64,000 nucleotides of DNA from the NCBI GenBank assembly GCA_038046765.1, contig JBBSVN010000005.1:1-64000 (forward strand). Direction: 5' to 3'. Position numbers and translations under genes: made by a program. The notes beneath the pieces are model-generated. The model saw nothing but the letters and a program-made list of their open reading frames with translations, was not told the origin of the DNA and made no database searches. Positions 48,835 to 57,793 of this stretch are shown here, piece by piece; within the stretch, counting starts at the first letter, position 1, and every line of letters starts with the position of its first letter. Origin of the DNA: Candidatus Micrarchaeota archaeon. Its GTDB lineage: Archaea > Micrarchaeota > Micrarchaeia > Anstonellales > Bilamarchaeaceae.

Positions 48835-49963
48835 GTAACTTCATATGCCCTTCTTGTATTCCTGTTGTTGATAGGGCGTACATTGCAGCAAAATTATTTG
48901 CTAATCCAGCGCAAGCAATTGCCATAGCTAAATCCTGTGATGATTTTGCACCAAGAATTTTTAATGCTAGTTTAGCAGTTGGTAACGTATTTATTGCTCC
49001 ACCAACTGTTGCAATTGCTAATGGCAATTCGATCGAACCAACTAAATCTCCATACTCATCTTTTTCATAGTGCGTTAGCGATGTGTATCCTTTTCTTTGT
49101 TCTTTAGTTGCGGCATAAGCATGCGCTCCGGCTTCAACTGCGCGCCAGTCATTTCCTGTAGCTAGTACAACTGCATCAATCCCGTTCATTATTCCTTTGT
49201 TATGCGTTGCGCATCGATAAACATCATTTAATGCAAATTCGTAAGCATCTAAGAATTTTTCTATCGTTTCTTCTCCAATAATTTCCTTTTTCCAAACTGC
49301 TTTTGCCCGAACCATTCTTTTTGTTGCTAAGTTACTTAGTATTCTAAGGCGAACTTCGCTTTGGGTGTACTCTGCAATTGTTGGTGAGATTTTTTCTAAA
49401 AATGTATTAATTGTATTTGCACCCATTGCATCTGCAACATTAACATAAAAATAAACAATTATCATTTCTCCCCTGTTCGTTTCTATTAGTTTCATTTTAA
49501 AGTTCTGTACTCCGCCTCCGTACTTAGTTAAAGACTCGGTAAGTTTTTTTGCAAGAACTAATATCTCATCTCGCTTTGCGTTTAGTGTTTCAATCGCTTT
49601 TTTCGGGTTTTTAACATTGACCAGTTGAATCTGGCCGATCATAATCGATGGATCTGCTGATGCAGTAAATCCATCTGGTAAACATAATTTAGCTGCTTTA
49701 CTAGCTCCTGCAATTACGCTTGGTTCCTCAATAGCCATCGGGATGATTTTTTCAGTTCCATTAATCTTAAAGTTCATCGCTAATCCTAGCGGCAAGTGAA
49801 TCGCACCAATTGTATTTTCGATCATGGTGTTCGCAGATTCAAGAGAAAGTGAACCGCTGTTTTTAAGTAAAATTAGTTCGTCATCGCTTAAGCTAAGTTC
49901 TTTCTTTAAAATCGCTAGCCTTTGTTCTAAGGATAGTTTATAGAAACCAGAGAAATTTGACAT
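48806..49963 (-). CDS. mvaA: HMG-CoA reductase, class II
   Basis: FYKLS, MIEN.IG, EEPSV, DAMGAN, THNKGIMNG, GNDWRA, GIQEGHMKLH. Confidence 0.93.
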   Translation of the reverse strand: MSNFSGFYKLSLEQRLAILKKELSLSDDELILLKNSGSLSLESANTMIENTIGAIHLPLGLAMNFKINGTEKIIPMAIEEPSVIAGASKAAKLCLPDGFTASADPSIMIGQIQLVNVKNPKKAIETLNAKRDEILVLAKKLTESLTKYGGGVQNFKMKLIETNRGEMIIVYFYVNVADAMGANTINTFLEKISPTIAEYTQSEVRLRILSNLATKRMVRAKAVWKKEIIGEETIEKFLDAYEFALNDVYRCATHNKGIMNGIDAVVLATGNDWRAVEAGAHAYAATKEQRKGYTSLTHYEKDEYGDLVGSIELPLAIATVGGAINTLPTAKLALKILGAKSSQDLAMAIACAGLANNFAAMYALSTTGIQEGHMKLHARKNEIKG

Positions 49964-56083: not shown

Positions 56084-56816
56084 TTATTTCCCAAACCTTC
56101 TCATTCTGTTTGCGTATTCTTTTAATGCATCATCAAAATCTGCCTTTGTAAAATCCGGCCAGAGCTTTTTAGAAAAATATAATTCACTGTAACTAGTTTG
56201 CCAAGACATTAAACCGCTTAATCTTTCTTCGCCCGAAGTTCGGATAACTAAATCTGGATGTGGCAAGCTTGCTGTGTATAAATTCTCCTCAATTATTTTT
56301 TCATCTACTTTTTTTATTCCCTTAGAAATGATCTGATTTACTGCATCAACTATCTCCTGTCGTCCACCGTAAGCTAGTAAAAGATTTAGCTGATATTCAG
56401 TATTTTGTTTGCTTAATTCTTCAGCTTTTTTTATCATTTCTTGTATCTTGACTGGAAACAAACCAAGTCTTCCAAAGAATCGCACGCGAACATTATATTT
56501 ACCCTTTTCATCGCTCATTATCGCTTTTTTAAGATTATCAGTAAATAGTTCAAAAAGAGTTGAAACTTCATTTTCATCGCGATCAAAGTTTTCTGTACTA
56601 AAGCCCCACATTGTAAGCATTTTAACTTCTGATTCTTTGCACCATTTTAAAACTTCCCCAATGTGCCCGATGCCTGTTGCGTATCCTTCTTTTATGCTTT
56701 TTTTATTTTCTTTAGCCCATCTCCGGTTTATGGCTATATAGTTTTTTATTCTATAAAGAACTAATTTTTCCATCCGGGATAATGGCTATATGTTTTGGTA
56801 CTTCTTTTTCATCCAT
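56084..56816 (-). CDS. uppS: cis-prenyltransferase (UppS family), two exons: 56816-56768 joined to 56727-56084 (230 aa)
   Basis: Exon 1 MDEKEVPKHIAIIPDG plus exon 2 NRRWAK...FSTEN..R...YGGR.EI...PDL.IRTSGE.RLS...LWPDF. Confidence 0.9.
56728..56767 (-). other. 40-nt BHB-type intron in uppS mRNA
   Basis: CCGG-ATGG-AA^A ... CCAT-AA^A-CCGG geometry; removal restores frame and the DGNRRW motif. Confidence 0.85.
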
Positions 56817-57765
56817 GTTTCTTTAACCCCCTATCTATTAATTTTAATGAATTAAAATTATCAATAAATTTGAGTATGTCTGCCTGATTTTGTATCACTA
56901 ATATACTGGCTGTTGTAATTTTTCCATTTCTTATTCCATTATCCTTGTAAATATGCGGTCTTTCAATTCCCATTTTTATTAATATTTCTAAACATTCCTC
57001 TAATATTCTTTTGTTGTGTTGCTTTATGGATATTCTTCTTACTTTGTTTTTAACTATGCTTACACTACCATCTGCATCAAAAAACCCAGCTAAAAAGTAT
57101 TTTTGTAATTCTAAGTTATTTAATATCTTCGGGACATTTGTTTTTTCCTTTTTATTTCCTGTTGGAATTTGGCAAATTTTAGTTAGAAAAAGGTGGATTA
57201 CTTTTGATCGTCCGATCAATCTGTAAAAATTATGCTCCTTAAATAAGGGCGGTTTGTAAGCAAATAACTTGATAAATATCTCTTGTAGATATTCTAAATG
57301 ATGTTTATCAATTGTTGTAATTCGAATCTCTGCGTTATACTTTGATCCATTTCCTATCGTATCATTGGGGTTAGCTAAATGTCCATCACCCATAATATAT
57401 CCTAACAAATAAGCAAGTGACGAATCAATTTGTTTAGGTAAAATGTATTTTTTTGTATTCGTTCCACCTAAATATGTTATTTTTTTGTATAATTCTAGTT
57501 CAGTAATCTGGAGTATTTCTGCTAATTTCAATAATTCCGAAATTGGTATTCCTACATCTCTTTTCGCATCCCCTAACCAGTTTATTATATTCTTGTATTT
57601 GTTGTTACTCATTTTAGCTATTTCTTTGTAAGTATTTTTTCCGAACTTAGTTTTTAAATAATTTTTTATGCTATAAGCTCGTACTTCGTCGTTTCCCTTT
57701 TCCTTAGTTATTTTAAGGTCTTGAATATAACTTCCAAGCTCTATAACTGGGTTCTTGTCCACCAT
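56809..57765 (-). CDS. Free-standing double-motif LAGLIDADG endonuclease-like protein with N-terminal HTH
   Basis: LAYLLGYIMGDG and FLAGFFDADG motifs; no intein splicing motifs seen at either end. Confidence 0.85.
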   Translation of the reverse strand: MVDKNPVIELGSYIQDLKITKEKGNDEVRAYSIKNYLKTKFGKNTYKEIAKMSNNKYKNIINWLGDAKRDVGIPISELLKLAEILQITELELYKKITYLGGTNTKKYILPKQIDSSLAYLLGYIMGDGHLANPNDTIGNGSKYNAEIRITTIDKHHLEYLQEIFIKLFAYKPPLFKEHNFYRLIGRSKVIHLFLTKICQIPTGNKKEKTNVPKILNNLELQKYFLAGFFDADGSVSIVKNKVRRISIKQHNKRILEECLEILIKMGIERPHIYKDNGIRNGKITTASILVIQNQADILKFIDNFNSLKLIDRGLKKHG

Positions 57766-57793
57766 ATCAATCAAATAGAATTAGAAACTACGT

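Follow-up and report, generated by a model that had tools for sequence, protein, structure and literature searches.

How an archaeon of the Micrarchaeota family Bilamarchaeaceae obtains a functional cis-prenyltransferase from a gene whose catalytic motif is divided between two reading frames is the question raised by the uppS locus in the window, by which we mean the whole 64,000-nucleotide stretch of DNA analyzed here. The reading of uppS (a family label only, which says nothing on the chain length of the product) begins at 56816 on the minus strand and runs for 16 codons, the last two of which specify the P-loop Asp-Gly, before it ends at a TAG six codons beyond the Gly. The original prediction had placed such a HIAIIxDG start at 56816-56768, in a different frame from the ORF-track protein and followed soon after by a TAG, and both coordinates and sequence are borne out. 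A 40-nt insert shifts the frame by +1 and supplies the TAG in the exon-1 frame (Table 1). Exon 1 encodes beta-strand 1 and the P-loop Asp-Gly, a motif also found in intact relatives and in solved cis-prenyltransferases, and exon 2 is uninterrupted; the roles of the P-loop Asp and of the RXG motif in this enzyme family are described in bioRxiv 10.1101/2020.06.03.132209.

Table 1. Features of the uppS locus, with positions in the window, and the intron of rnhB, with positions on contig C4 of the same genome.
Feature	Position	Strand	Remarks
Free-standing two-motif LAGLIDADG homing-endonuclease-like gene	56809..57774	-	~321 aa; Pfam LAGLIDADG_3
uppS exon 1	56768..56816	-	49 nt; 16 codons and first base of Asn codon
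Exon-exon (outer) helix, 5' arm	56774..56788	-	core CCGG 56777-56774
Central helix, 5' strand ATGG	56770..56773	-	4 bp; includes the ATG at which the ORF-track protein wrongly starts
5' splice site AA^A	56767..56769	-	in 6x5 internal loop; cut placed by the BHB rule
Putative BHB-type (relaxed hBH/BHL) intron	56728..56767	-	40 nt; based on fold and same-site inserts in relatives
Inner stem-loop of intron	56739..56763	-	TAGTT/AACTA and TTTAT/ATAAA
Central helix, 3' strand CCAT	56730..56733	-	covaries with 5' strand across 30 introns
3' splice site AA^A	56727..56729	-	3-nt bulge; AAA in 28/30 introns
Exon-exon helix, 3' arm	56713..56726	-	core CCGG 56726-56723
uppS exon 2	56084..56727	-	cis-prenyltransferase; PF01255 positions 5-219, E 2.4e-72
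rnhB intron	C4:132971-133007 (locus L212)	+	37-nt BHB insert; follows directly on the RNase HII motif DETGR

When deletions of 1 to 79 nt near the site were tried in turn, a deletion of 40 nt was the only one to give a single open frame with an intact motif, which confirms the earlier claim that removal of 40 nt yields a 230-aa protein with the motif restored. The deletion can be placed in four equivalent registers (offsets 47-50) on account of the runs of A; the rule for cleavage of bulge-helix-bulge (BHB) motifs selects offset 49, and the cut would then fall inside the Asn codon, 4 nt past the Asp codon. The predicted spliced product is a full PF01255 domain that includes both the P-loop Asp and the C-terminal RxG, and the closest named relatives of the protein come from Micrarchaeota assemblies, the best of them labeled Ca. 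Bilamarchaeaceae. A profile search of the genome, which is 1.5 Mb in size, returned this one PF01255 match; as the genome is 89.7% complete, a second intact copy of uppS is conceivable.

The insert is not an assembly error, since contigs of two studies hold it unchanged. A contig from another sample, possibly of the same study as the source, spans the insert site with no differences, while one from a separate study covers exon 1, the entire insert and only three letters of exon 2; this settles the question of an artefact that had been attached to the original prediction. Among assembled contigs covering the site, which drop rare variants, none has a joint that skips the 40 nt. An apparent 1370-nt skip in one contig was set aside, as it was based on matches of 21-27 nt and probably comes from another organism. 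The insert has one feature that might suggest removal at the level of DNA, for example as an excising mini mobile element: its 3' end (56730-56739, minus strand) is an exact 10-nt repeat of an exon-1 stretch (56782-56791, minus strand), which may be a relic of template switching or simply chance. No comparable repeat of exon 1 is present in the other 29 introns of the family, so that the repeat occurs in one of 30, and 29 other family genomes carry inserts at the same site. Excision of DNA, like misassembly, is thus very improbable.

We propose instead that the insert is removed from RNA. The predicted fold of the junction has an energy of -23.3 kcal/mol (z = -4.96) and none of 200 shuffled sequences was as stable, with pair probabilities of 0.95-1.0 for the eight core pairs, and two helices that are each Watson-Crick in four of four pairs at the spacing seen in uppS were encountered at just 6 of 400,000 random positions of the genome. 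A 4-bp central helix (AUGG/CCAU) lies between the splice sites, the 3-nt bulge at the 3' site is closed by the exon-exon helix, and cleavage following the second bulge base would regenerate the mature sequence in a register common to all 30 introns of the family. The strict 3-nt bulge of the canonical hBHBh' motif is absent from the 5' site, which lies in a 6x5 internal loop, and the motif is therefore of the relaxed hBH (BHL) form. The original prediction anticipated most of this fold, namely the helices CCGG/CCGG and ATGG/CCAT, the AAA bulge and the inner stems; its relaxed bulge or internal loop at the 5' site is now refined by folding, and the part that must be revised is the outer helix, which is longer than had been stated, at about 13 bp with two small loops.

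Comparison with relatives gives this fold an evolutionary dimension. A match to PF01255 is present in 94 of the 99 genomes of the family, 30 of these matches being without the first two to four positions of the profile. Once a 24-residue fragment is left out, 93 uppS loci can be read. Every one of the 30 genes with a shortened match, and no other, is interrupted within the Asn codon by an insert whose position is identical to the nucleotide; the 63 intact genes comprise 62 that were parsed and one (G017) that was judged from its translation. The inserts range from 15 to 114 nt, have unrelated interiors and occur in 10 of the 23 genera, six of which are mixed. Eighteen of them shift the frame, and all 12 with a length that is a multiple of three contain an in-frame stop. 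The outer helix is Watson-Crick in four of four pairs in every insert-bearing gene (30/30) versus 5/62 intact genes, and one of its pairs is G-C in 15 introns and T-A in the other 15. In the central helix, four of four pairs form in 18 introns, three in 11 and two in one; the second pair is T-A in nine and C-G in 21, such that the base in the intron tracks the synonymous Asp codon. The lowest-energy fold contains both helices in 28 of the 30, and the first two pairs of the inner helix are present in just 16. As far as sequences can tell, this is the pattern expected when selection preserves an EndA substrate and nothing else.

These comparisons also bear on the view that uppS is a pseudogene or the casualty of a chance insertion, or that the genuine protein is that of the short ORF beginning at 56773. 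The frame in the genome is indeed broken, an in-frame ATG at 56773 opens an ORF of 229 aa, and the genome is incomplete. However, this is the only PF01255 gene that was found, exon 2 has no other lesion, and an identical site with covarying helices in 30 genomes is not what decay or accident would leave. The P-loop Asp is missing from the short ORF, and 21 of the 30 intron-bearing relatives have ACG in place of its ATG. We give almost no credence to either version. Ribosomal bypassing, of which T4 gene 60 is the model, is just as hard to credit. According to this scheme the insert is not removed from the mRNA, and translation crosses it by a frameshift or a hop of the ribosome; the uppS of this genome does have a GGA codon followed by a stop codon within a stem-loop. 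Inserts are found, however, in all three frames and at lengths of 15 to 114 nt, a matching landing codon is absent here, and what is conserved is the combination of exon-exon and exon-intron pairing with 3-nt bulges, which is the signature of EndA. Pseudogene, bypass and DNA excision all fit the data poorly.

The enzymes that would be needed for splicing are encoded by the same genome. Its EndA (407 aa; C4:18277-19500) matches the epsilon2 enzyme of ARMAN-2 (4fz2/9w2k; E 2.4e-129), has the ASL, and has preserved the residues corresponding to Y160, K161, Y236, H251 and K282, on which the activity of the ARMAN-2 enzyme relies (PMC12397907). As the epsilon2 type of EndA cleaves both strict and relaxed hBH/BHL motifs in vitro (PMC3239211), the relaxed 5' site of uppS is no obstacle. 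The ligase RtcB is encoded intact in one uninterrupted frame, so that an endonuclease predicted to accept relaxed motifs and a ligase are both at hand. A second protein with a tRNA_int_endo domain (175 aa; C10, locus L032, 1456-1983, minus strand) is 22% identical to the epsilon2 EndA.

Taken together, the anatomy, conservation and covariation of the insert, the need for its removal and the presence of the enzymes, all read from sequence, lead us to infer cleavage and ligation, and the 40-nt insert is very probably an mRNA intron spliced by EndA. The initial interpretation as a BHB intron gains from the 30 same-site inserts in relatives, their covariation, the forced stops, the single gene copy and the suitable enzymes. 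In the proposed mechanism, the pre-mRNA would fold so that the outer helix brings the ends of the two exons together and the central helix joins the 3' end of exon 1 to that of the intron, leaving both splice sites in AAA bulges or loops; the epsilon2 EndA would cut each site behind its second A, and ligation of the exons by RtcB would yield a cis-prenyltransferase of 230 aa whose Mg-binding P-loop is whole again. With cutting by EndA and ligation by RtcB, the synthesis of UppS would therefore need splicing. It has to be asked whether the host retains the intron by selection, as a regulatory switch tying the synthesis of the lipid carrier to the activity of EndA and RtcB, an idea that is compatible with splicing and a rival to a neutral passenger. 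The unspliced mRNA always stops or shifts frame, and splicing could therefore gate expression; yet the intron is absent from two thirds of the relatives, close sister species included, and its inner sequence is not conserved, and we regard such a switch as unlikely.

The intron is unevenly distributed. On a tree of UppS (a quick single-gene tree of 92 proteins, based on exon 2 minus its first six residues), it requires at least 21 gains or losses, which the tree cannot separate, versus a mean of 25.6 after shuffling, and eight of the changes are forced by strongly supported branches; the uppS intron has therefore been repeatedly gained or lost. Five intact genes (those of G007, G036, G424, G187 and G161) retain a perfect exon-exon helix, which could be the footprint of precise intron loss or a ready-made landing site, both being possible. 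The site is also occupied outside the family. The own-phylum pattern search gave matches in 48 of 401 genomes, and of three extra-family matches that were fetched, two are uppS introns from two further Micrarchaeota families (G253, 14 nt; G149, 36 nt) and the third (G289) is not; ten more matches compared with uppS included no introns, and the last 16 were assessed on the matched sequence alone. Among the matches listed in a pattern scan of metagenomes, 4 of 120 loci are uppS (L268, L294, L300 and L364) and the others are mostly bacterial chance matches; two of the four are distant loci with same-site inserts (L268, 14 nt, 30% identity; L294, 18 nt, 37%). In the second DPANN phylum, that of a locus labeled Woesearchaeota, six of 201 genomes match the 14-44-nt pattern, none of them at uppS.

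A candidate for the agent of spread lies directly 5' of uppS, in a gene that the original prediction did not mention. Situated between purP and uppS, the start of which it overlaps by 8 nt, it has a GC content of 29% compared with 35-39% in its neighbors, and its product has the two LAGLIDADG motifs with their acidic residues and, in a structural model (pLDDT 68.8), the corresponding fold, with Foldseek matches to the TliVMA intein endonuclease (E 1.6e-8) and to I-DmoI (E 1.9e-6); a search of PDB sequences with the same protein gave one weak match only. In most relatives purP, a gap or another gene directly abuts uppS. Orthologs of the endonuclease are present in four of the 99 family genomes, three being full length, with both acidic motifs kept, and one broken; those in the three genomes other than this one (48-56% identity) comprise two full-length copies and one that is frameshifted. 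All four lie immediately 5' of a uppS gene that has the intron, and no ortholog stands before any of the 63 intact genes (4/30 versus 0/63; Fisher p = 0.009, a value that is overstated as kin are treated as independent). Beyond the family, at the distant metagenome locus L268, the uppS with the 14-nt insert also has a LAGLIDADG ORF in front of it. Weak LAGLIDADG matches 3' of uppS (G032, G304 and L069) belong to another family and were excluded from the orthologs. Genes of this other family (L010, 2827-3580, minus strand; L069, 2649-3288, minus strand) adjoin an intron-interrupted tRNA gene, and that of L010 also adjoins the RNase P RNA gene.

We suggest that the adjacent LAGLIDADG gene probably explains the presence of the uppS intron, and we favor, with some reserve, its spread by collaborative homing. 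The LAGLIDADG enzyme would cleave a uppS allele that lacks the intron, at the exon junction or close to it; repair would copy the endonuclease gene and the intron together, and the intron, by splitting the cut site, would make the donor allele immune. The endonuclease gene would later decay, as in G367, or disappear, as in 26 of 30 cases, and the uppS intron would remain, because only its exact removal is tolerated. At locus L254 (G367:C4) a decayed endonuclease gene, with an internal deletion and frameshifts, lies between purP and an intron-bearing uppS. The similarity of flanking sequences as a clue to the target of the endonuclease is confounded by the pairing constraint. The ORF of G422 is in frame with exon 1, and removal of the intron from its mRNA would create a reading frame for a 557-aa fusion of endonuclease and UppS; splicing would therefore switch the product from a free endonuclease to the fusion.

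The alternative with a serious claim is that the intron is spliced as proposed but has spread independently of the endonuclease: it might be old and repeatedly lost, or have moved by reverse splicing at the level of RNA, with the LAGLIDADG gene hitchhiking or targeting purP or the intergenic gap. Such a history would account for the 26 of 30 introns that have no adjoining endonuclease ortholog and for the intron-type exon helix in five intact genes, which is expected after precise loss, and counts of changes cannot tell gain from loss. What it leaves to coincidence is that four of four uppS-type orthologs, and six of six of a second, rnhB type, stand before an intron-bearing gene, and that in two genomes (L255, G151:C49; L243, G422:C169) the stop of the endonuclease ORF falls inside the uppS intron. 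We hold this alternative, which concerns the homing part only, to be the less probable account; part of the patchiness could come from an old intron that was precisely lost many times.

The rnhB type came to light in a scan of the genome that was not tuned to uppS and looked for BHB-like pairs joining two open frames. It gave 87,659 structural candidates, which were tested against ORFs from 800 kb (about three quarters) of the genome of one relative, and 37,217 comparisons left 29 joins, with rnhB (37 nt) ranked first and uppS second; since only 800 kb of one relative were used, the test covered genes with a homolog there. The 27 lower-scoring joins, taken as a group, looked antisense, intergenic or like overlapping alternatives, and a first tblastn screen for split genes, swamped by antisense matches, was replaced by this structure-plus-homology test. 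Directly before rnhB is a different LAGLIDADG-like gene of 354 aa. Its five orthologs, one of them broken, all precede an rnhB with a BHB insert of 20-73 nt, and the pairing of six in six is a count over genomes that have the endonuclease. The original prediction had raised the prospect of a wider unannotated class of mRNA introns. The genome-wide scan supports a class, in that a second intron is found in rnhB both here and in relatives, and, as only two mRNA introns were found in the testable part of the genome, it is not an abundant one there.

Other observations in this genome concern tRNA genes and further LAGLIDADG proteins. A third free-standing LAGLIDADG gene (208 aa; C1:48438-49062, plus strand) converges on a tRNA-Met(CAT) gene (about 49125-49280, minus strand) that ARAGORN missed and that was called as tRNA-Met after in silico removal of BHB-like inserts of 49 and 35 nt; judged from its sequence, this tRNA gene appears to carry two introns. 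ARAGORN found only 12 tRNA genes in the 89.7% complete genome, which suggests that many tRNAs have several or non-canonical introns, and relaxed settings of the program returned noise only. LAGLIDADG domains also occur in five long ORFs (900-1700 aa) on C4, C5, C7, C10 and C12, which are probably inteins.

Our analysis leads to a more general proposal, to which we lean slightly: that Micrarchaeota harbor two-part mobile elements, each consisting of a free-standing LAGLIDADG gene and a host-spliced BHB intron of 15-114 nt that breaks the target of the enzyme within a conserved catalytic motif, with homing seeding EndA-dependent introns in the housekeeping mRNAs of uppS and rnhB and in tRNAs, and orphan introns persisting once the endonuclease gene has decayed. 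If this is true, such elements would be a general route for the origin and spread of archaeal introns, and mRNA splicing would be a routine and unannotated need in these archaea. A second housekeeping gene, split in a third of a DPANN family, indicates that annotations understate how often mRNA is spliced by the tRNA machinery, and gene callers miss the catalytic N-terminus of uppS genes that bear the insert. The pairing with endonucleases makes the origin and spread of archaeal BHB introns experimentally approachable.

According to Schwarz 2020 (PMC7714728), the known archaeal BHB introns in mRNA are that of cbf5 and one in a Haloferax 5' UTR. In our search of the literature, which included few subscription papers and no supplements, we found no uppS intron, no mRNA intron of Micrarchaeota and no free-standing endonuclease partner in archaea, and among BHB introns in coding sequences the searchable literature has those of crenarchaeal cbf5 only. 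Further accounts of the cbf5 intron are reportedly those of Watanabe (2002) and Yoshinari (2006).

The intron in the crenarchaeal cbf5 pre-mRNA, 16-44 nt in length, was shown by cDNA to be spliced (Yokobori 2009; PMC2738675). As described there, it resembles the uppS intron in being short, in its position at a catalytic motif close to the 5' end, in its relaxed BHB, in the cut after the second bulge base, in its variable interior and in its gain and loss among relatives. Judged by its sequence, the uppS intron is one that works like that of cbf5, agreeing with the relaxed BHB form in each respect that can be tested and departing from the strict hBHBh' form. It differs in the gene, in the phylum (Micrarchaeota), in the type of EndA (epsilon2 versus (alpha-beta)2), in a length of up to 114 nt and in a far patchier distribution within one family, and it is known here from DNA alone. 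It also has a free-standing LAGLIDADG partner, whereas PMC2738675 notes only that the introns of cbf5 lack the length to encode such an enzyme. The BHB intron of HVO_1309 in Haloferax volcanii (PMC7714728) is likewise an mRNA substrate of the tRNA splicing endonuclease; unlike that of uppS, it is located in the 5' UTR, where no reading frame depends on it. The relaxed hBH/BHL introns of ARMAN-2 tRNAs, as presented in PMC3239211 and PMC12397907, share motif form, enzyme type and phylum with the uppS intron, but there the substrate is a tRNA precursor and not an mRNA.

For the proposed mobility the closest parallels are in phages, where F-CphI and psbA are a case of collaborative homing. Collaborative and trans homing in phages have been reviewed (PMC2988022), and the arrangement treated there, a free-standing endonuclease beside a conserved gene with an endonuclease-less intron, is like that of the uppS locus; the phage intron, however, is a self-splicing group I intron, while that of uppS is a putative BHB mini-intron, spliced by a host enzyme, on an archaeal chromosome, with mobility proposed from sequence. 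Within the archaea, some BHB introns of rRNA genes carry the gene of a LAGLIDADG endonuclease, I-DmoI and I-Tsp061I being examples (PMC2738675), and they share with the uppS locus the combination of a BHB intron and a LAGLIDADG enzyme of similar predicted fold; in the rRNA introns the gene of the enzyme lies inside the intron, whereas at uppS it lies outside, upstream of exon 1.
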